A program made the position numbers and the translations under genes. DNA of 64,000 bases from an uncultured Gammaproteobacteria bacterium (GTDB taxonomy: Bacteria; Patescibacteriota; Patescibacteriia; Magasanikbacterales; GWA2-37-8). Below the pieces are notes generated by a model, which made no database searches, had not been told where the DNA came from, and worked only from the letters and a program-made list of their open reading frames with translations. Positions 18,074 through 38,573 of this stretch are shown here, in pieces. The stretch spans positions 14,582-78,581 of the forward strand of contig CAZUFD010000002.1 in the NCBI GenBank assembly GCA_964619625.1, given 5' to 3'. Numbering within the stretch: the stretch's first letter is position 1; each line of letters begins with the position of its first letter.

Positions 18074-21000
18074 CTAAGGCGTGGTGGTAACTACTTCCGA
18101 AACAGAACTGGAAACAACCGATGTTGACGAAGGAGTTGCAGTTAAATTTTCAACAGTACCGGGGGTAGAAGACGGCGCGGGTTCAGCAGCCGACACGGTG
18201 GTGGTATTAGTAGAAACGACTTCGATGTTGCTATTATTGTCCGATGCGGACGGCGTTGGGTTGGGTTGTGCCGCCTGCACATTTGTTCTGTTTAAAATAT
18301 CTTGCAGCTGCTGCTCATTTACACAAGTATTGCCTACGCAAAGCTGCTGGGTAGTAACTTTGTCCGCAAACAATTCTTTTACCGTGGCAATACCGTTTTT
18401 GATTGCTAATCCTAATTTTCTTAAACTATTTTTTACTGCTAAAGTAAACTTATCCAACACAACTTGAGCAAAATTCGGCAAATCAACGCCTATCTGCTCT
18501 TCTGTTAAGCTGCCGGCCGACCAGTGCGGATTTACAAACATGGTCACTGTTCCGATGGCGGCATTTTCTTCCATAGATTGCAAAGCAATACCTATTACTC
18601 TGCCCGGTTCAGTTGCTTTTACGGCCAACCCCGGTTCGGCGGAAGAAGTTAGATAATCCCCTTCTTTAACTATTCCGTTCGCGTTTGAAACTTTAACCGG
18701 CACGCGTCCGCCTAAAGCTACCGGCCTAAATGAAGTAGGATACAAACCTTTTATTCTTACATTACTAACATCGTATCCTCCCAAAATAAAACCGGGATTT
18801 TCGGAAATTACGCCTAGAATATTATCGGCATAAGCAACGGAGCATTTTTTGATAAATGGAGTAGAAGATGCATCTTCTCCGGAACAAACCACTTCGCCGT
18901 AGGTTGGACAATTTCCATTGGCTTCACACTCCGGATCCAACGGATAAGTTTCGGCAATATCCAAAGTGGTCGTGCCGGCAATATATCCGGATGCTTTTAT
19001 AAAACCATTTACACCCAAACCGGCGGTGGTGCTGGCCCCCGCGTCTATATATAATTTATAAGTAGAAGTAGTGCTGGTGTTTATGGAAATTGTTTGGTTT
19101 GCAATACCGCCCGAACCATTGCTTTCGGCATATATCATTAACATCGGATTGTCATTGATGGCGGCAGTGTAGCTATTTGGCGTACCCACCACCGTAGACG
19201 AAACTGTCATATCTACCCAAGTTACCATACCGGCATTATCATCAAAATTTAATGGGCCGGTTTCTAAACTATTTACATATGTAACTGAACTGGAAGCTTC
19301 ATAATACACGCCGTCATTGGCAAAAAAGGCATTGCCCGCATCGTCAATTTTAAATGTAGAGGTGCCGGAAGCGCTGTGCACATTTACCGAAACTGTGGAA
19401 GACGTGTTGCCCGCGCCCCAAATATCTAATTTTGCCAGCGGACTGGTGGTATTTATACCAATAGTGCTATTAAAGTAAGTGCTGCTGCTCGTACCACCGA
19501 CAATTGTCAAATACCCAGCGCTGTCGTTAGCTATGGTACCGCGGAAATTAGCTTTATTTTGAACATAAAACGAATTGCCGCTCCCATTAGCATACAGATA
19601 ACCACCATTAACTGTAATGCCGCCGGAGTCTGAAGCAAAATAAACACTTGGGTTGCCGGTATAAACTCTGGTGCCGCTTATATAACCCTGTACGCCTAAT
19701 GTGTATTGTGGAGAAGAAGAACTTATACCAACATTGCCATTTGTTAATATGTTAAGCAAAGATTCTCCGGTGGAAGAATTTATACTAAAAGGATTGATTC
19801 CGTCTGTGCCTTGCACCGACAGCATGGCTATTGGCGAAGAAGTATTTATACCCACTCTGCCATTTGTAAGAATCGTAAACATAGAAGAAGCGGCGGCCGT
19901 ATTGGTGACGACTGAAAAAGGATTGGCTGTTCCGTCTCCCTGAACTGTCAATCTTGCAATTGCGGTGCTAGTACCGGCGGCCATATTACTACGAGCAAAA
20001 ATATGCCGCGGGCTTCTTGTGCCTCCGCCGATGTCATAGGTGTTGTCGCTGCTAAAACCTAAATCTGTGCTTAAAAGTACCGTGCTGGCAAAAGCACCAA
20101 TAATTACTTGATTTGATGTGTTCAGGCTAAGCAGACCAATATCAGCCGCATTATCCGCTCTTCTGCCATAAATACCGGTATTATTTTCCAGACGAATAGC
20201 GCCGGTGGTGGCTGGAATATTTCCAAAACTTAAAGCGCCCGTGCCGCCAATAGTTAGTGCGGTAGTTGGAGTACTAGAACCAATGCCAATATTTCCATCT
20301 TTATTTATTCTAAACAAGCTGGCGCCGGTAGATGAAGCGATTTCCACAATATTTACGGTAGATGTCCCTTGTAAGGATAGACTCGCCACTGGCGAAGAAG
20401 AGTTTATACCAATTTGCCCCGAAGGGGTAATTCTTAATTTTTCTGTGTTAACTCCCGCGTCATAGGTATTAAACACAAGAGCGCCGGAAGTATTTCCGCC
20501 AGATCTGATGCCGCCAATTTCGGCTATGGCCGTTTCCGAAATTGAAGGACTGTCTATAGCAAACTGCATAACCATTCCAAAACCATCCGCGAGACTGGAA
20601 TTAGACGAATTTTGCGCCAAACGCAGACCTGTCGGTGCCACGTTAGTAAAGGTGGAAGTGCGAACTGACCTTATAATTTCCGACGTATTTCCTTGTACAT
20701 ACAGAGGTGTAGTAACTGTGGAATCATTATAAGGAACTCCGATACCGACTTTTGCCGGAATTACAAGATCACCATCATCACGAGCCATTAAAATAATGCC
20801 AAGGTTTTTTGTACCCGCCGCAGCTGAAGCAGATGTCCATAAAGAAATACCTTCGTTGCCAACTTCCAATAAACCGCCGGTATCGGCCGCTTCTAATTCC
20901 CAATCACCGCTGTTATAGACAAGATTGCGAGTCAGATGTAAAACGCCATCATTACGTAGAACTCCGTTGTTAATTCCTCCACGAGAATTGGCGATTAAGC

Positions 21001-23083
21001 CTGCTTGGTTGCCAATTCTAAGAGTACCAGTTTGTCCAGACGCGCCGTACCGATTAAGATGCAGCTGAGTATTAGAGTCGCTTGCTAGATTAAGAAGCGC
21101 TCCCGGACTTGAAGTGCCGATACCAACCCTGCCATTGGCCATAACTTTTAGGATGCTAGAAGAGGCGGCGGAATCAATGCTAAATATAGAAGATGTGGAA
21201 CCGGTAGAAGATGCAAAAATAGACAAAGCTCCTTGCGACATTATCCCCCCTGCTCCGGCCATAAGCGAAGTCCCGGCCATAATATTGCCTTGAGCTAAAA
21301 TATCATTTCTAGACTGAAGATTACCGACTTCAGCAGAGTGAGCAATAAGGCTGCTTACTTCGGTACCGGAGATGTCTAAGATAGATATTGTATTTGAACC
21401 ATAATTGGCTACATAAATATACCGGCCGGAGACAAAAATAGAATAAGGATTTGTGCCGACAGGCACCGTGGCAATATGGCTAGGAGCCGATGAGCTGGAT
21501 ACATCTACGATAGAAATATTGGCCGAACCCCAATTTGATACATAGGCATAGCGGCCGGAGACATAGATAGCTGTGGGGCTAGTACCAACAGGAACGGTAG
21601 CGATCTGAACGGGAACAGCGGGATTGGAAACATCAACAACAGATACCGTCGCTCCAGAAAAATTCGCCACATAGGCATAGCGGCCGGAAACATATACGCC
21701 TCGCGGATTAGATCCTACCGACACAGTGGCAATTTCAACGGGAGTTGCGGGATTGGAAACATCCACAACCGACATGGTATTTCCAAGATAATTTGCCACA
21801 TAGGCATAGCGGCCGGAAACATAGACTGAACGAGGGCTGTTGCCCACGGAAGTCGTAGCTATTTGAACGGGAGTATATGGATTGGAAACATCAACAACAG
21901 AGATGGTGTTAGAGGTGTGATTTACCACATAAGCATAATGGCCGGAAACATAAATTGTGGTAGGTTGCGCTTCTACAGCCACGCTAGAAAGTTTTCTAGG
22001 GGAAGAAGGATTGGAGATATCAACAACTGAAACCGTGTTGGAAGTATAGTTAGCAACATAGAGATAACGGCCGGAAACAAAAGTGGAAATAGGGTTAGTA
22101 TCTACAGAAGTGGTGGCAATCTGAACGGGAACAGATGGATTGGAAACATCCACAATGGAAATAGTATTAGAATCATAATTAGCTACATAGAGATACTTAC
22201 CGGAAACAAAGAGCCCTCGCGGCACCGAACCCACGGTCACAGTAGAAATTTGAGAGATGGAAGAGGTGTTGCTACGATCTAAAATATTAGAAACATTTCC
22301 TACGACTGATAATTTTTGCGTGGGGGTAGTTGTGCCAATACCAACTAAACTGGTTGGGGTGATAAACAAAGTGGAAGTACCCGTTAAAGCAGTGCCATTA
22401 GAGGCATAATAAGGAAATTGTCCAGCGGTGCCGCTGTTAACTGTGCCGGAACCAAAGGTGGTACTATTTATCCAAACCGGCCTGCCCGCGCCGGCTGACA
22501 TAAGGAAATAACCAAGGGTTCCAACTTCGGTAGCGTTGTATCTAGTGCCATCGGAATAAATTATTGAACCATTGGCGGCAATGGTGGATGAATTTGTACC
22601 GCCATACGCAACACCAACAACGCTTCCGTTCCAAGTGCCGGAAGCTATGGTATTAAAATAGGCGTTACTTAAAAAGTATATTTTATTAGCAAAGGTAGTC
22701 GTAGCACCACTTGTGGAACTAACTGTAAGCGCCCCGTCCGTACCTACGTTTAAAGCCGTATAGTTGGTTGAGTCATAAGCAAAACGCAAAGAAGATGTGC
22801 CCATGGTAATGGCAGTATTCCCGGTAAGCGTGGTGGTAAGCGGCGGATAAACGGTACAATTTGTATCCCCTGGCGAACAGCTTGGATCGGTAGTTTCTCC
22901 GGGCGCGTAAGGGGTGGTGGGCGGACTAGCGAAAGCGGGGTAAAAATAATAAAAAACCATTATTAGGCCAACAAAAATTGAGGATACGGTTATAACCCCA
23001 CTGACAAGTTTGCCTGGTTTTTTCACGCGAGAGTCTATGTAAACTTTCGCGGAAAATAAATTTTTTTCTTTCCGATATCTCAT
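18074..23083 (-). CDS. Giant surface protein (1669 aa) with a YVTN beta-propeller-repeat region and Gly/Ser/Thr-rich beta-helix-like repeats
   Basis: N-terminal TM anchor. About 8 tandem ~40-aa repeats of the form YVANY.SNT.SVVDVSNP..P..IATV.VG..P..V.VSGRYAY (YVTN-family beta-propeller repeat). A long G/S/T/N-rich repeat region. A C-terminal Cys-containing domain and a Ser/Thr-rich tail. Confidence 0.85.
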   Translation of the reverse strand: MRYRKEKNLFSAKVYIDSRVKKPGKLVSGVITVSSIFVGLIMVFYYFYPAFASPPTTPYAPGETTDPSCSPGDTNCTVYPPLTTTLTGNTAITMGTSSLRFAYDSTNYTALNVGTDGALTVSSTSGATTTFANKIYFLSNAYFNTIASGTWNGSVVGVAYGGTNSSTIAANGSIIYSDGTRYNATEVGTLGYFLMSAGAGRPVWINSTTFGSGTVNSGTAGQFPYYASNGTALTGTSTLFITPTSLVGIGTTTPTQKLSVVGNVSNILDRSNTSSISQISTVTVGSVPRGLFVSGKYLYVANYDSNTISIVDVSNPSVPVQIATTSVDTNPISTFVSGRYLYVANYTSNTVSVVDISNPSSPRKLSSVAVEAQPTTIYVSGHYAYVVNHTSNTISVVDVSNPYTPVQIATTSVGNSPRSVYVSGRYAYVANYLGNTMSVVDVSNPATPVEIATVSVGSNPRGVYVSGRYAYVANFSGATVSVVDVSNPAVPVQIATVPVGTSPTAIYVSGRYAYVSNWGSANISIVDVSSSSAPSHIATVPVGTNPYSIFVSGRYIYVANYGSNTISILDISGTEVSSLIAHSAEVGNLQSRNDILAQGNIMAGTSLMAGAGGIMSQGALSIFASSTGSTSSIFSIDSAASSSILKVMANGRVGIGTSSPGALLNLASDSNTQLHLNRYGASGQTGTLRIGNQAGLIANSRGGINNGVLRNDGVLHLTRNLVYNSGDWELEAADTGGLLEVGNEGISLWTSASAAAGTKNLGIILMARDDGDLVIPAKVGIGVPYNDSTVTTPLYVQGNTSEIIRSVRTSTFTNVAPTGLRLAQNSSNSSLADGFGMVMQFAIDSPSISETAIAEIGGIRSGGNTSGALVFNTYDAGVNTEKLRITPSGQIGINSSSPVASLSLQGTSTVNIVEIASSTGASLFRINKDGNIGIGSSTPTTALTIGGTGALSFGNIPATTGAIRLENNTGIYGRRADNAADIGLLSLNTSNQVIIGAFASTVLLSTDLGFSSDNTYDIGGGTRSPRHIFARSNMAAGTSTAIARLTVQGDGTANPFSVVTNTAAASSMFTILTNGRVGINTSSPIAMLSVQGTDGINPFSINSSTGESLLNILTNGNVGISSSSPQYTLGVQGYISGTRVYTGNPSVYFASDSGGITVNGGYLYANGSGNSFYVQNKANFRGTIANDSAGYLTIVGGTSSSTYFNSTIGINTTSPLAKLDIWGAGNTSSTVSVNVHSASGTSTFKIDDAGNAFFANDGVYYEASSSVTYVNSLETGPLNFDDNAGMVTWVDMTVSSTVVGTPNSYTAAINDNPMLMIYAESNGSGGIANQTISINTSTTSTYKLYIDAGASTTAGLGVNGFIKASGYIAGTTTLDIAETYPLDPECEANGNCPTYGEVVCSGEDASSTPFIKKCSVAYADNILGVISENPGFILGGYDVSNVRIKGLYPTSFRPVALGGRVPVKVSNANGIVKEGDYLTSSAEPGLAVKATEPGRVIGIALQSMEENAAIGTVTMFVNPHWSAGSLTEEQIGVDLPNFAQVVLDKFTLAVKNSLRKLGLAIKNGIATVKELFADKVTTQQLCVGNTCVNEQQLQDILNRTNVQAAQPNPTPSASDNNSNIEVVSTNTTTVSAAEPAPSSTPGTVENLTATPSSTSVVSSSVSEVVTTTP

Positions 23084-27504: not shown

Positions 27505-28038
27505 TTAGTTGTAAAAGTTAGAATACTTTTGTCTAAACTTTGCGAGCTTTGGAGCGATGACTGCCTGGCAATAGGCATGATCCGGATTTTTTTTAAAATA
27601 ATTTTGATGATAACTTTCCGCTTCGTAAAATTTCTCGAGCGGCAATACTTCGGTTACAAAAGGATCATCGTATGCTTTAGCTTGGGACAGTTCCGCAATT
27701 ATTTTTTCGGCCGCTTGTTTTTGTATGTCATTTTCATAAAAAATTACGGACCGGTATTGCGTACCAATGTCACTGCCCTGACGATTGCGCGTAGTCGGAT
27801 TATGAATTAAGAAAAAAATATGCAAAATATCATCCAGGGTTATGTGCGCCGGATCATAGGTAATTTTTACCACTTCCGCATGGCCGGTACTGCCGCCGCA
27901 CACTTGTTCATAAGATGGATTTACGGTCGTGCCGCCAGCATATCCCGAAACTGCCGATACTACTCCTTTGGTATGAGAATAGGCCGCTTCCACGCACCAA
28001 AAACAACCTCCGCCTAACACAATTGATTCTGGTTGCAT
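27505..28038 (-). CDS. msrA: Peptide methionine sulfoxide reductase MsrA
   Basis: Active-site GGGCFWCVEAAY near the N-terminus. Confidence 0.9.
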   Translation of the reverse strand: MQPESIVLGGGCFWCVEAAYSHTKGVVSAVSGYAGGTTVNPSYEQVCGGSTGHAEVVKITYDPAHITLDDILHIFFLIHNPTTRNRQGSDIGTQYRSVIFYENDIQKQAAEKIIAELSQAKAYDDPFVTEVLPLEKFYEAESYHQNYFKKNPDHAYCQAVIAPKLAKFRQKYSNFYN

Positions 28039-31741: not shown

Positions 31742-32401
31742 CTAATCGTTGAGGCAGTGGAACTTGGCAGGCGCGAGGCGGTCGTAGGTGTCCTCTGCCA
31801 GTCTGGCTGCGGGAGCATAGTAGTTGGGGTCGCAGCTTGCGTGGCTGCAGATCTCATCCACATCTGCTCCGGTCAGACGGACGCTGGTAGGACGCGACGT
31901 CAGGACTCCTTCCTGATCATCTCCTAGGTGTCCGGCACCGAGTGCATGGCCCATTTCGTGAGCCGCAACGTTCTGCATCATCCATGTGCACGAGGTGTTG
32001 GGAGGACAGGTACCGTTGCCGTAGATGAAGATGTTGTCCCCATCATACTCACCGGCCAACCAGTCGCTCTCGTCAGAACGCGCTCCTTCCCACAGATCTC
32101 TACCGTCTTGCGTTGGGTAGTTCTCGTAGATCCAGTAGATACACCGGACCCCGTTGTTCTCCCCGCTGCCGTAGAGACCGGGCTTCTCGCCATCGTAGGC
32201 AAGGAACTGGTTCTCGTTCTCGTATCGCGCGTTGGCGTTGATGTCGGCAATCGCGGCCTTGATCTGATCGATCTGAGGCTGATGCCAACCGCCGCAGGCA
32301 TAGACCGTAATGGTCTGCTGCTTCTCCACCTCTTCTAGAGGCGGCGCTCCTGCACAGGCTGCCAGCACTGTGAAGAAGAACAGAAGAATGAAAGTCTTCA
32401 T
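31742..32401 (-). CDS. Lipoprotein zinc metalloprotease of the metzincin type (HExxHxxGxxH)
   Basis: RBS GGGGAGA upstream of MKTFILLFFFTVLAACAG (lipobox LAAC). Zinc-binding motif HEMGHALGAGH. GC content is much higher than the background. Several antisense shadow ORFs lie inside it. Confidence 0.8.
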   Translation of the reverse strand: MKTFILLFFFTVLAACAGAPPLEEVEKQQTITVYACGGWHQPQIDQIKAAIADINANARYENENQFLAYDGEKPGLYGSGENNGVRCIYWIYENYPTQDGRDLWEGARSDESDWLAGEYDGDNIFIYGNGTCPPNTSCTWMMQNVAAHEMGHALGAGHLGDDQEGVLTSRPTSVRLTGADVDEICSHASCDPNYYAPAARLAEDTYDRLAPAKFHCLND

Positions 32402-32540
32402 GGTCTTGTCTCCCCAGGCTAAGCCTGTTTTTTGGTTGTGTAAGAACGAAACTAGACACGATAATATACCCGCATTATACCACAAAACAGGGCTTTTGTC
32501 AAGCCCCTTACGCTATTATTTTGGCTAACTTTAGATAAAA

Positions 32541-34949
32541 TTAGTCTTCATCTGCCAACTCAACCCCAGCCGGATCAAGGCCACGTTTGGCCGGGCCGTG
32601 CAAAAGAGAACCATCTTTATTAAACCTAGAGCCGTGGCATGGACAATCCCAAGTTTTCGCATCATCATTCCAGCCAATAGTACAGCCAAGGTGCGGGCAA
32701 ACCGCCGAAAATGTTTGCACCTTTCCACCAGTTTTAACTACCGCCACTTTTTTACCCTCCAATTCCACCACCTCACCTTTGTCCTCCTGCAAATTAGCAA
32801 ATTTTTTATCTTTTTTCATAATTGAAATGTTGGTTTTATTATTTTTTGGCCAAACCAAAGTTCGGTCGCAAGCAAACAAAGTTTGAAAAGAATTAGTTTT
32901 ATTCATTACCAAATCCGCGGCTATGCTGCCACCAAAAAATCCTTGGGCTGTGCCATTGCCCGCCCAGCCGGTTAGAAAAATAACATTATTGCCATAAGCC
33001 GAATGCGGACCAACCAAAGGCAAGGTATCGGCCGTAGAAAAAATAGATCCTTGCCAGCTATTTATTATGTTAAACTGATTTTTCTCTCCCGCCAAATCTC
33101 GTAGCCACGTTTCCAATTTTTCATGCGGATTTCCTTTTGGTTTTGGTTCGTCTACAAACCAATCCTCGCCGCCCAAAAGAAATTCACTTTCCCCTACCGA
33201 ACGAAAATAATGATATGGATCTAAATCGTCGCAAAAAAATCCATTTCGCAGCGGCGGCTGGCCGGAAAACTTTATATCAATGACATAACTTATAGAACTG
33301 CGAATAAGGCTAGCGACTTTTGAAAAAAATTTATTAGATGGAATACCGGTTGCAACGATAAGTTTTTCTGTCACTATACCCCCCTCTTTGGTTTTTAAAT
33401 TGATTGTATCTCCCAAAGAAATATCTGTTACTTCGCTGTTTTCAAAAAATACCGCGCCATTTTTTACGGCCTTCTCCGCCAAAGCCAATAAAAATTTACG
33501 GATATGAAAAATACCGTCTGAATTATGCCTGCGATACGCTTGGCTTATTCCAACTCCCAACGCTCTGCTTGCTTTATCTTTATCTAACACCTCAAACCCG
33601 GAATCTTTTTCTTTAAGCCGATTAAAAGTTTTAGAAAAATCTGCTAATGATTTTTTATCTGTTTGCTTTGTAAAACAAAACGCATCAATATCCTGCCAGT
33701 CGCAATTAATTTTTTCTTCAACGATTGTTTTTTTAAATAAACTAATCGCAACATCGCTCGCCTCCCAAGCTTTTAAAGTCGCATCTATGTTTTCTAAAAA
33801 CCTGGTGGCACAGGCGGTAGAGTAGCCTGAATCTCCGCTGCCAATCGTGCCCGCCTCAACCACGGCCACTTTAACTCCGGCTTTAGATAAAAAATATGCG
33901 GCCGAAACTCCGGCCATTCCCCCGCCGACAACAACCGCATCAAAATTATTATCGCCTTTAAGCGTCGGAAAACGCGCTGTTGCCGGAACATCTCTAAACC
34001 AATAAGAAGGCTCATCTGAAATTTTTGCTACCTCTTTGCCACACGAACAATGTACGCATTTTTTCTGTTTCTCTTTGCCGAGCCCGCCTGCAACGCTTGC
34101 GCCGGCATTACGGGCAGGCAAAAACCACAAACTGGCAACCAGATTTCCGACGAGCAGTCCGTATACTAACGGATCAAAACTAAATAAATTAAATGTACGA
34201 GTTAGATACGTCATAACCACTGCCGCCACCGCCACCAAAGCCGCATAAAATATTTCTTGTTTTTTATTAACAAAGATTGAAGTCAAAGGCTCAACCAGCA
34301 TGACCGTAGCAAAGAAAAGCACTACTCCGGTAAGTAAATTGGCAGACAGCAGCCGTGGTAATAAATTTATAGTTACACCATCCGCAACAGATAAAACACT
34401 AAAGGCAGCCGCATACACAAGCAAAAATGTTCCGGTGATATGCCAGCGATTTTGCTTCCAAAGAATAATAAGCGCGGCCAAAACGATAAAAATAAATAAC
34501 AAAACTGCTGGGTCAAACAAATTAAATTTTACGAGTGACGGCACTTGAGCTGCGGCCACAGCCCACCAAGCGGCAATGGGCGTAAAAATACCCACAATCG
34601 CCAAGGCGCTGGAGGCCGGATTAAACACGTGGCGATTTTTACCAAAATGAAGCATCTGTTTGGTGGCCACGGCCAAGAGCGGCAGAAGAATAATAAAAAT
34701 CCAGCGCGGATTGGGTAAAGCGACAATCGCTAAAACAAATCCAGATATCCACGATGAAACCGGAAGATACCAAACTCGGTCGCGAACATAAGTCCAAAAC
34801 AAATCGTACAATGAATAAAGCAATACAATTAAAAGACTGCTGCCAAACATTTTCAAATCTTTAAAATATAAAGATGAAAACAAAAGCAACAGGCCCAAAT
34901 AAAAAACCATGAAATATTTAATCGGCAAACGATTCTTTAAACTGACCAT
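32541..34949 (-). CDS. Fusion protein: RnfD/NqrB-like polytopic membrane domain + FAD-dependent (DAO-family) oxidoreductase + C-terminal Rieske [2Fe-2S] domain
   Basis: The N-terminal ~300 aa have ~8 TM helices and the RnfD/NqrB blocks [22 protein letters not shown] and [10 protein letters not shown]. The centre has a GxGxxG Rossmann fold ([22 protein letters not shown]) of glycine-oxidase/DAO type. The C-terminus has Rieske boxes CPHLGC ... CPCHGS, including the second Cys of each box as in bc1/b6f-type Rieske clusters. Confidence 0.85.
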   Translation of the reverse strand: [802 protein letters not shown]

Positions 34950-34970
34950 AATCCGAGTTTTGCAAAATTA

Positions 34971-35537
34971 CTACTTAACAATAACTGTGCCGCGCATGGA
35001 ACCATGGAAAGAGCACGTATAATTATAGGTACCGGCCGAAGTAAACGTGTGGCTAAATGTTTGCCCAGAAGACATGGCACCGCTACTGAACGAACCGTTG
35101 TCGGCAGTGACTGTGTGTGGCGCGCCGTCGTTATTGGTCCAAGTTATAGTATCACCTGCGGAAATCGTAATACTGTTTGGTTGGAAAGAAAATCCAGCAA
35201 TAACGGCGCTAACTTTTTTAGGCGCAGGCGTTGGCGCAGGCGTTGGAGTTGGTTGAGGAGTTGGAACCGGAGCGCTTTGTGTAGGCTGGTCTGGGGCGGT
35301 GGACGGCTCAGATTTGGTTGGCGCGGTATCGGTCGGCTTGCTTGCCGGTTCGCTGGCAGATGAAACAGCTGGGGCAGATGTTGGCAAACTTCCACCAGCT
35401 GGTTCTGACGAAGGCTGGCCTTGCGTAGGCGCAACTACGGCATCTGTATTTGTACTTGTGTCTGATTTAACACAACCGGCACCCATTAACACTACGCCTA
35501 CGAGCGCTGCTAACAAAGAAAGTTTTGTTTTATACAT
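34971..35537 (-). CDS. Lipoprotein cupredoxin (plastocyanin/amicyanin-like type-1 blue copper protein)
   Basis: Lipobox LMGAGC, a Pro/Thr/Ala-rich linker, and C-terminal cupredoxin ligands in the pattern H (APHTV) ... C-x2-H-x4-M (YTCSFHGSMRGTV). Confidence 0.85.
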   Translation of the reverse strand: MYKTKLSLLAALVGVVLMGAGCVKSDTSTNTDAVVAPTQGQPSSEPAGGSLPTSAPAVSSASEPASKPTDTAPTKSEPSTAPDQPTQSAPVPTPQPTPTPAPTPAPKKVSAVIAGFSFQPNSITISAGDTITWTNNDGAPHTVTADNGSFSSGAMSSGQTFSHTFTSAGTYNYTCSFHGSMRGTVIVK

Positions 35538-37759: not shown

Positions 37760-38197
37760 CTAACGTAATAGATAAACTGATATAAAAAGCACTATAAAAT
37801 TTATTGCCGACAGCACGCACCACGTGCAAAAAGCTTTCAACACTACTGCTTGCACATAAGTAAAGTACATTGAAAATAAAAAACCAATCGTAACAATGAC
37901 TGTAATTGGCCAGAACGGCGCAAGCCCTTGGGTAAATAAAATAGAAAAAAATATAATACCCGCATACATAGCAAGCCCTAAAAATGCATTTGGGATGCCA
38001 AACATTCTGCTCTGCGGACTAGACTGCACTTTCGCGCACCATTCTGCTGGAAAGAACCAACAGGCCACCGGCGTCTTTTTTATGGCATGATAAGATAAGT
38101 ATATGGTATCTAAAATTCCAATACCGGCAAATATGAAAATTAGTGTCAAATAGAGCGGCATAAATTTAAATAATAAATTATTCAGTAGTCTTTCCAT
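37760..38197 (-). CDS. Vitamin K epoxide reductase (VKOR) family protein
   Basis: Polytopic membrane protein with a loop Cys pair (CWFFPAEWC) and the TM CxxC motif (CTWC) characteristic of bacterial VKOR homologues. The start was chosen at MERLL; the longer N-terminal extension is probably not translated. Confidence 0.7.
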   Translation of the reverse strand: MERLLNNLLFKFMPLYLTLIFIFAGIGILDTIYLSYHAIKKTPVACWFFPAEWCAKVQSSPQSRMFGIPNAFLGLAMYAGIIFFSILFTQGLAPFWPITVIVTIGFLFSMYFTYVQAVVLKAFCTWCVLSAINFIVLFISVYLLR

Positions 38198-38573
38198 CAA
38201 AATACTCTTCGTTAGTTTCGGCCTCTGCTTTTGTTTTAGCAATGACCCCGTCTTGATGGTTTGGTGGTGAATATAGAGTATATAATTTGAGCGGTTTATC
38301 AGAAGTAGTATTGATGATGTTGTGTTTTGTTCCAGCTGGAACGACAACTACAAATCCATCACTTATTATGTGTTCAACATCATCCAGAACTGCTTTCCCT
38401 TTGCCTGATTCACATCTAATAAACTGGTCTAACTGATGCACTTCCGCGCCAATATCCTCATTTGGTAGCAAACTCATCACAACCAGTTGACTGTTTTTAG
38501 CAGTATACAAAACTTTCCTAAAATAATCATTCCCTAAAGAAATTTTTTCTATATTTGCTACATATCCTTTCAT
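38178..38573 (-). CDS. Cupin-domain protein
   Basis: 131 aa. The two-His/Glu pattern GAEVHQLDQFIRCESGKG...VVVPAGTKHNI fits a cupin beta-barrel. Confidence 0.65.
   Translation of the reverse strand: MKGYVANIEKISLGNDYFRKVLYTAKNSQLVVMSLLPNEDIGAEVHQLDQFIRCESGKGKAVLDDVEHIISDGFVVVVPAGTKHNIINTTSDKPLKLYTLYSPPNHQDGVIAKTKAEAETNEEYFDGKTTE

Follow-up and report, generated by a model that had tools for sequence, protein, structure and literature searches.

A two-gene module was found on the minus strand of a 64,000-nucleotide stretch of contig CAZUFD010000002.1 (assembly GCA_964619625.1, positions 14,582 to 78,581), which comes from an uncultured member of Magasanikbacterales in Patescibacteriota and is called the window below at its full length of 64 kb. 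The first gene encodes a cupredoxin of 188 amino acids (aa). The second gene, which starts 21 nucleotides (nt) after the cupredoxin stop, encodes an 802-aa protein in which an RnfD-like membrane domain, a DAO-type flavin adenine dinucleotide (FAD) domain and a Rieske [2Fe-2S] domain are fused in one chain. The module is real, recurrent and uncharacterised. Rather than a machine of an entirely new category, we regard it as a sister variant of the published NQR/RNF-like system, with DAO plus Rieske in place of the NAD(P)H domain and a blue copper protein in place of the FMN_bind protein. By analogy with Rnf we slightly favour the reading that the two genes encode a self-contained, one-way conduit carrying electrons outward across the cell membrane.

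Both open reading frames (ORFs) are present on the minus strand where a preliminary description of this DNA had placed them, with 802 aa and 188 aa, and neither protein reaches any curated NCBIfam equivalog cut-off. The three-part architecture given in that description stands, by Pfam for the DAO and Rieske domains and by relatives and hhalign for the RnfD-like part. The two genes and their parts are as follows.

34971..35537, minus strand: gene of the membrane-tethered type-1 copper protein, 188 aa (ORF; PF00127, PF13473)
35475..35537, minus strand: signal peptide ending in a lipobox-like M-G-A-G-C with Cys22, as read from the sequence
35217..35474, minus strand: low-complexity tether rich in Pro, Thr, Ser and Ala, residues 22-107 (composition)
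34974..35216, minus strand: cupredoxin domain with predicted copper ligands H141, C175, H178 and M181 (motif search, alignment)
32541..34949, minus strand: fusion gene, 802 aa, RnfD-like membrane domain + DAO-type FAD domain + Rieske domain (ORF)
34101..34949, minus strand: RnfD/NqrB-fold membrane domain, residues 1-283, without the extracellular five-helix linker (profile, hhalign, fold search)
34614..34634, minus strand: motif R106-H-V-F-N110-P-A, invariant in family alignment A1
34278..34316, minus strand: motif FFATVMLVE220PLTS, with F212, F213, M217, E220, P221 and T223 invariant
34005..34100, minus strand: disordered Lys-rich linker, residues 284-315, predicted cytoplasmic (pLDDT, composition)
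34041..34058, minus strand: C298-x2-C301-x-C303 (CVHCSC) in the linker, residues 298-303 (motif search, alignment)
32865..34004, minus strand: DAO-type FAD domain, residues 316-695, with GGGMAG at 342-347 (PF01266, E 1.1e-44)
32544..32864, minus strand: Rieske [2Fe-2S] domain, residues 696-802 (PF00355, E 1.1e-12)

Residues 1-336 of the fusion protein gave no Pfam match even at E<=10, the window sequence did not reach the gathering cut-off of PF03116, and the N-terminal domain alone had no match in NCBIfam. The relationship with RnfD was therefore shown through relatives, hhalign and fold search. The N-terminal query found 33 stand-alone proteins of 254-315 aa with 37-54% identity, and PF03116 was matched above its gathering cut-off by 21 of 34 aligned family members, relatives at 35-54% identity, with a best E of 1.3e-15 and a best score of 58 bits (cut-off 27.7) over profile positions 9-286 of 296. 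It means that among the three domains expected from the preliminary description, PF01266 and PF00355 were found on the window protein, but PF03116 only in its relatives. The alignment of the family with E. coli RsxD by hhalign gave 96% probability and E 2.9e-9, and both motif matches on which the RnfD/NqrB relationship had first been based were reproduced in it. An RnfE/NqrD-like identity was rejected, as the family gave no hhalign match with RsxE. The membrane domain was modelled separately, since Foldseek with the full model was dominated by the DAO domain, and the fold search showed that it has the three-dimensional fold of RnfD/NqrB.

With ~280 aa the window membrane domain is shorter than RnfD/NqrB subunits (310-415 aa), and unlike them it shares a chain with electron-input domains of its own and carries neither the five-helix linker nor the Thr for covalent flavin mononucleotide (FMN). 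In Clostridium tetanomorphum RnfD, T153 bears the covalent FMN and lies in the extracellular "five-helix linker" (PMC9588780). By alignment this residue equals T187 of RsxD in D-G-I-S-Q-A-T, and the segment of ~64 residues which holds T187 is absent across the whole family in both the alignment and hhalign. So the loss of the covalent-FMN site, which had been noticed before, is correct and extends to the whole loop, but the earlier argument, a replacement of LLSGAT by LLSANL, used the wrong residue: LLSGAT at RsxD 274-279 is a transmembrane segment and aligns with LLTGVV (205-210) of the window protein, not with LLSANL.

The residues of the riboflavin/Na+ site are matched in the window domain. 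N110 maps via RsxD N122 to N124 of C. tetanomorphum RnfD, the proposed Na+ site, and E220 maps to RsxD D289 and C. tetanomorphum RnfD D248, which is implicated in riboflavin and Na+ binding (PMC9588780), with Asp changed to Glu. K97 is the counterpart of the lysine in RnfD AKQ, and K97, N110 and E220 are all invariant in the family. The aligned sequences thus show a covalent-FMN loop that was lost while the residues of the riboflavin/Na+ site were kept.

The Pfam bounds of the other two domains in the fusion protein are 337-680 for DAO and 718-790 for Rieske. In Foldseek the FAD domain was closest to glycine oxidase 4ysh (target-normalised TM 0.84-0.85); sarcosine oxidase and proline dehydrogenase came next. 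The best solved relatives of the Rieske domain were b6f- and bc1-type Rieske proteins. Both of its boxes, C751-P-H753-L-G-C756 and C769-P-C771-H772-G-S-R-F, are present as first described (bc1/b6f-like CxHxGC and CxCH), with the disulfide cysteines included, and they are invariant in 17/17 triple fusions. Hints on its potential can be read from the sequence alone: the Ser of CPCHGS is kept, and the Tyr two residues on is changed to Phe. It is not a stand-alone bc1/b6f Rieske subunit, being a C-terminal fusion domain with 59.9 bits vs 250 for PetC and 41.4 vs 97.4 for Rieske_proteo.

The same order of PF01266 and PF00355 in one chain occurs in YhfW-type proteins (Bacillus subtilis YhfW, ~500 aa), and a search with residues 292-802 recovered thousands of such soluble DAO-Rieske proteins of ~500 aa at 30-34% identity. 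These proteins have neither a membrane domain nor a linked cupredoxin, whereas the window protein begins with a 283-aa polytopic domain. The function of YhfW-type proteins is likewise not known (PMC7317962).

The AlphaFold2 model of the fusion was confident for each domain (mean predicted local distance difference test score, pLDDT, 90.7), and pLDDT fell below 50 at residues 281-295. The stretch of residues 277-310, which follows the last helix, holds 7 Lys/Arg. In Rnf, both termini of RnfD are cytoplasmic (PMC9588780). Free-standing Rieske homologues of 84-97 aa and DAO homologues of ~385 aa have no room for export signals. Because the RnfD C-terminus is cytoplasmic, the tail is rich in Lys/Arg and the free-standing homologues carry no export signals, the predicted topology almost certainly has both the FAD and the Rieske domain in the cytoplasm. 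The chain was first thought to face the periplasm or cell surface; this is right for the cupredoxin, but the FAD and Rieske domains are placed inside by tail charge, RnfD topology and homologue sizes.

The linker also carries the CVHCSC cluster, which had been described as an extra cysteine cluster before the Rieske domain. The cluster exists, but it sits in the linker, ~450 residues ahead of the Rieske boxes. The CxxCxC motif is found in 12/17 triple fusions and is missing in 5/17 and in 6/6 double fusions, and it could be an optional metal site.

The small protein belongs to the plastocyanin/azurin family of cupredoxins and matches Copper-bind PF00127 at residues 111-188 (E 3.4e-15, 56.7 bits vs cut-off 21.2) and also PF13473 (E 3.7e-10). 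Its best NCBIfam match was amicyanin (TIGR02657) with 57.5 bits, below the cut-off of 110.2, and the plastocyanin equivalog TIGR02656 was not reached either (51.4 bits vs 87.85). The His/Cys/His/Met set is the same as in amicyanin and plastocyanin, with the amicyanin-like spacing C-x2-H-x2-M. This is matched with its earlier assignment as a type-1 copper protein, but not with the spacing H-x4-M given then. The C-x2-H-x2-M motif is also present in the partner proteins of L004, L006-L011, L014, L027 and L036 (L numbers denote the loci compared), and H141 is kept in 98% of 46 partner proteins. All four ligands are present, and copper binding itself is predicted.

The cupredoxin is located outside the cell. 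Its tether contains P20, T14, S13 and A12 among 85 residues, and similar tethers were seen in partners at other loci. A GAGC motif recurs in the homologues of L004, L006, L007, L009-L011 and L024, in line with the lipid anchor proposed before. Because the lipobox M-G-A-G-C is atypical, with Gly at -3, we regard lipid anchoring at Cys22 as probable but not certain.

The search with residues 292-802 found P0034, a database protein identical to that of the window, and 16 other triple-fusion clusters of 736-810 aa with 56-68% identity. It also recovered six RnfD-like+DAO double fusions (633-676 aa) and stand-alone DAOs of ~385 aa at 39-50% identity. The N-terminal query had given stand-alone proteins only, but with these 16 further fusions a restriction of the fusion to the window was rejected. 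Triple fusions with an upstream cupredoxin gene were found at L006 and L007 (Candidatus Magasanikbacteria), L008 (Parcubacteria), L087 and L088, and L006 and L007 show synteny with the window at 60-66% identity. Other loci have the same parts in other arrangements. At L004 cupredoxin, RnfD-like protein, DAO and Rieske have a gene each, lying in this order; at L089 and L090 an RnfD-like+DAO fusion is followed by a separate Rieske gene of 92-93 aa; and at L021 an RnfD-like+Rieske fusion is followed by a cupredoxin-fold gene.

The separate genes of L004 lie only ~10 nt apart, and such close spacing would allow an assembly error or frameshift to join neighbouring genes into one 802-aa ORF. Against an artefact stand the 16 other triple-fusion clusters in the protein database, the fusion at five loci from differing assemblies and sample sources, the aligned linkers with the semi-conserved CxxCxC motif, and the intermediate double fusions. 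The chance of an artefact is practically nil; we excluded it on the recurrent fusions and aligned linkers, and the gene is a true fusion, a point that the preliminary description had left to be checked.

Database entries for these fusions bear no other name than "FAD-dependent oxidoreductase" or "Rieske family protein", an annotation that the present analysis corrects. The triple fusion P0038 of L087 was deposited as "Candidatus Udaeobacter sp." (Verrucomicrobiota), and the same locus holds an FMN_bind-ApbE-RnfD-like+FNR set of the type of the candidate phyla radiation (CPR). The Udaeobacter label could be due to mis-binning or horizontal transfer.

When 1.84 billion cluster representatives were searched with the family profile, they yielded 1,920 relatives at E<=1e-3, 897 at E<=1e-10 (counted as clusters at 50% identity) and 47 at E<=1e-30, most of them only ~250-280 aa long. 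The hosts of 80 species-level loci were mainly Patescibacteria, but they also included some DPANN archaea as well as Omnitrophota and two Actinobacteria. Short RnfD-like genes of DPANN archaea (Iainarchaeum, Aenigmatarchaeota, Nanoarchaeia) were seen at L037, L048, L059, L063 and L075; their neighbours include a cupredoxin-fold gene at L037 and L059 and a Rieske gene at L063. One distant stand-alone homologue, P0033, is named "enediyne biosynthesis protein E5" by JGI. It may mean that a membrane protein of enediyne cassettes belongs to the same RnfD-like family, which we give as a lead only.

A cupredoxin-fold gene lies within 2.5 kb (<=2.5 kb) in 36/80 species-level loci, mostly adjacent and on the same strand, and every one of the 45 cupredoxin-fold partners carries a tether behind its signal peptide or membrane anchor. 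With L004 and L006-L008 among the related genomes, the link to the cupredoxin is kept beyond the window. The partners fall in two classes. In the window's clade they are true type-1 copper proteins (C-x2-H-x2-M), mostly together with a Rieske domain or gene. Beside more distant members the commonest neighbour is a Cys-less, His-rich cupredoxin fold (HPxH...YH[D/N]HLN), for which PF13473 was confirmed in seven partners. The Cys-less partners are at L019, L020, L022-L026, L032, L035, L039, L044, L046, L050, L053, L054, L057, L060-L062, L067, L071, L076, L084 and L085.

The cytoplasmic partner varies among the loci, and includes DAO, FMN_red/flavodoxin-like proteins, FNR-like reductases and TrxR-like flavoproteins. 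That different cytoplasmic reductases are joined to a single membrane module suggests that electrons enter from the cytoplasmic side. Together the loci show that RnfD-like domain, flavoprotein, Rieske and cupredoxin are linked in a conserved way, and that the fusion recurs with the same domain identities and folds.

A third branch of ~500 aa has a C-terminal PF00175 domain (FNR-fused), and 11/22 of these FNR-fused loci stand directly after FMN_bind and/or ApbE genes, with a DxxSGAT motif in some FMN_bind proteins. With its FMN_bind and ApbE genes this branch is the published NQR/RNF-like system described in PMC8238504 (Meheust et al. 2021, eLife) and PMC11334425 (Huang et al. 2024, mSystems). 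In that system an RnfD-like domain is fused to a PF00175 NAD-binding domain and accompanied by a flavinylated partner and ApbE; 127 clusters were reported, mainly from Actinobacteria and CPR; the flavinylation Thr is not conserved, and a non-covalent flavin site was suggested in the RnfD-like subunit; and a one-way electron flow from NAD(P)H to extracytosolic acceptors was proposed (PMC8238504, PMC11334425). Examples among our loci are the second copy of L008, L041, L066, L068, L073, L074, L079-L081 and L087.

The window module shares with it the N-terminal NqrB/RnfD-like domain without the flavinylation Thr, the fusion of this domain to a cytoplasmic redox domain, the membrane-tethered extracytosolic one-electron carrier as partner, and the largely CPR hosts. 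The differences are clear as well. Where the NQR/RNF-like system has the PF00175 NAD(P)H-binding domain, the module has DAO+Rieske and PF00175 was not found. Where the outside partner of the former is a flavinylated FMN_bind protein, that of the module is a type-1 copper protein with no ApbE nearby. The membrane domains are only ~27-33% identical. Of the three parts in the published definition the window has one, the PF03116-like domain, and lacks PF00175 and the flavinylation gene cluster. The NQR/RNF-like system is itself known from modelling and survey, not from biochemical characterisation. Neither PMC8238504 nor PMC11334425 mentions cupredoxin, copper or Rieske, and no account of an RnfD-like system with fused DAO-Rieske domains or a cupredoxin partner turned up in full-text literature searches. 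So the preliminary description was only partly right to present this architecture as undescribed: it is so in the literature searched, but its sister system was published in 2021 and 2024.

It is quite improbable that the module is an ordinary flavinylation-dependent NQR/RNF-like member whose FMN_bind and ApbE genes lie elsewhere in the genome, with the cupredoxin acting only downstream of them. Only 64 kb of the genome is in view, and L008 and L087 show that genomes with the triple fusion can have ApbE. At these two loci, however, the genes adjoin an RnfD-like+FNR gene of their own and not the fusion: an FMN_bind-ApbE-RnfD-like+FNR set lies ~0.5-3 kb downstream of the triple fusion (L008, 10846-13643; L087, 9165-10433), and two RnfD-like export systems with differing outside partners thus stand side by side there. 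Seeds for the jackhmmer searches were ApbE and RsxG of E. coli together with the L087 proteins FMN_bind and ApbE, which are Patescibacterial; as the RsxG seed was too distant and found only itself, the FMN_bind search was repeated with the L087 protein. These sensitive searches found FMN_bind and ApbE neither in the 64-kb window nor beside the short cupredoxin-linked members, only beside FNR-fused variants. Moreover, the defining PF00175 is absent from the module, and it is the cupredoxin which is the translationally adjacent gene (21 nt). Of the other Rnf/NQR subunits, an RnfG-like FMN_bind protein is thus missing from the window, where RnfA, RnfC and RnfE were not searched for and the neighbouring genes are unrelated.

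How electrons would move through the module can be proposed from Rnf, in which electrons move over RnfD between an outer FMN, an inner riboflavin at a distance of 7.7 A and a cytoplasmic Fe-S cluster at 11.7 A (PMC9588780). Because this relay is analogous, we suggest a path from substrate through FAD, Rieske cluster and membrane flavin to copper. A precedent is the NQR/RNF-like system, for which outward one-way flow over a non-covalent flavin was put forward independently. The substrate of the cytoplasmic DAO-type domain would be a small molecule, most likely an amine or amino acid; on its oxidation, single electrons would pass from the FAD to the fused bc1/b6f-type Rieske [2Fe-2S] cluster, which would stand in for the cytoplasmic Fe-S subunit of Rnf. 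The Rieske cluster would feed a non-covalent, riboflavin-like flavin at the N110/E220 site of the membrane domain. The electron could then gain the extracellular face, where the covalent-FMN loop that caps this face in RnfD is deleted, and the tethered type-1 copper protein would pick it up and pass it to an external acceptor. Predicted elements of this scheme are the direction of flow, the membrane flavin, the docking of Rieske and cupredoxin, substrate and acceptor, and a coupling to ions, if there is one.

The leg from a bc1/b6f-like Rieske to a blue copper protein resembles that from the b6f Rieske to plastocyanin. In contrast to the b6f pathway, the window Rieske is predicted on the opposite (cytoplasmic) membrane side from the copper protein, and the module lacks cytochromes b and f as well as a partner that binds quinone. 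The scan of 27 window proteins gave no cytochrome b, with no test aimed at a cytochrome b partnership of the Rieske domain.

The opposite direction has a known counterpart: FtrABCD systems, built from a cupredoxin and a membrane ferredoxin, take electrons from periplasmic Fe(II). Likewise the present cupredoxin would accept external electrons, from Fe(II), reduced copper or a host redox protein, and the RnfD-like domain would pass them inward to Rieske and FAD for the reduction of a cytoplasmic substrate, perhaps with Na+ export. Forward Rnf does send electrons from the outer FMN to the inner riboflavin with Na+ moving outward (PMC9588780), and the ion-site residues N110/E220 are conserved here. 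But the step from copper and Rieske to a DAO-type FAD would be steeply uphill, and the disulfide cysteines and the Ser of CPCHGS are present. Type-1 copper and bc1/b6f-like Rieske centres have a far higher potential than a DAO-type FAD. The swappable partners (FNR-like, FMN_red, TrxR-like) are typical NAD(P)H-oxidising donors, which also argues against inward flow. We consider inward flow very unlikely, and the outward direction was chosen because of these general cofactor potentials and the NAD(P)H-type donors at sister loci.

The fold of the membrane domain is also Amt/urea-channel-like, which would suit a channel or anchor for an amine, ammonium or a cation; DAO-Rieske would then serve a soluble cytoplasmic acceptor and the cupredoxin some separate task such as copper handling. 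This explanation is unlikely in our opinion, set beside the linkage of the four components described above.

Several points weigh against an outward conduit to a copper carrier. A partner was not detected at 19/55 short RnfD-like loci, and the cupredoxin is absent within 4 kb at two double-fusion loci. Because the Cys ligand is missing, most partners of the distant members are not simple blue copper carriers. No terminal oxidase or reductase is conserved near the module, where only module parts and local synteny recur. On the side of the membrane domain, the window sequence itself scores nothing against Pfam, and hmmsearch with the family profile gave no match among PDB chains. Without the outer FMN, the inner flavin may be too far from the external copper, unless a second flavin sits in the cavity. 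Finally, the cofactor content, docking geometry and activity of the module are predicted, not observed.

The module is the most integrated form of a stripped-down RnfD-like family which has repeatedly been wired to differing cytoplasmic flavin dehydrogenases: dehydrogenase, iron-sulfur relay and proposed membrane conduit are in one chain, and the copper partner is adjacent. The outside partners of this family are either flavinylated proteins, which were already described, or cupredoxin-fold proteins, which were not described in the literature searched. The module offers a compact two-gene system for asking whether the RnfD fold alone conducts electrons, which flavin is used after loss of the covalent site, and whether ions are coupled.

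Descriptions of CPR bacteria and DPANN archaea generally state that electron-transport chains are missing. The module bears on how these organisms get rid of reducing power, how they might bring electrons to their surface, and on the chemistry between them and their hosts. A more far-reaching and rather doubtful proposal is that it forms a minimal respiratory-like chain without quinones or cytochromes in ultra-small CPR bacteria, with cousins in DPANN archaea, in which the copper protein on the cell surface would reduce oxygen, metals or redox proteins of a host cell. Since the RnfD ion-site residues N110 and E220 are kept, electron passage might be coupled to Na+ or H+. Such a quinone-free chain, if true, would allow redox balance or energy conservation at the surface in organisms thought to be purely fermentative.

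Just past the stop of the fusion gene, a consensus scan alone detected one further element.

32474..32507, minus strand: hairpin with a perfect sigma-70 consensus promoter

The promoter reads TTGACA-17-TATAAT with TG (hexamers 12/12) and overlaps the hairpin; such a consensus match is not in itself evidence of function. Hairpin and promoter probably mark the end of the operon and the start of the next transcription unit. The next ORF, 31742..32485 (minus strand), encodes an HExxH metalloprotease-like lipoprotein. Its listed TTG start sits upstream of the perfect promoter, and translation more probably begins at the later Met, that of "MKTFILLFFF".

Ten further window genes were surveyed and showed housekeeping functions only. 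A VKOR-family protein (PF07884, E 4e-24) is encoded at 37760..38347 (minus strand), and the distance to the cupredoxin gene, which lies downstream of it, is 2.2 kb. Enzymes of this family normally give electrons to quinones, which a reduced genome of this type may not make. The ORF at 27505..28038 (minus strand) bears the MsrA signature "GCFWC" of methionine sulfoxide reductase; taken with VKOR, this may point to contact with oxidants. A very large ORF of 1669 aa is located at 18074..23083 on the minus strand.

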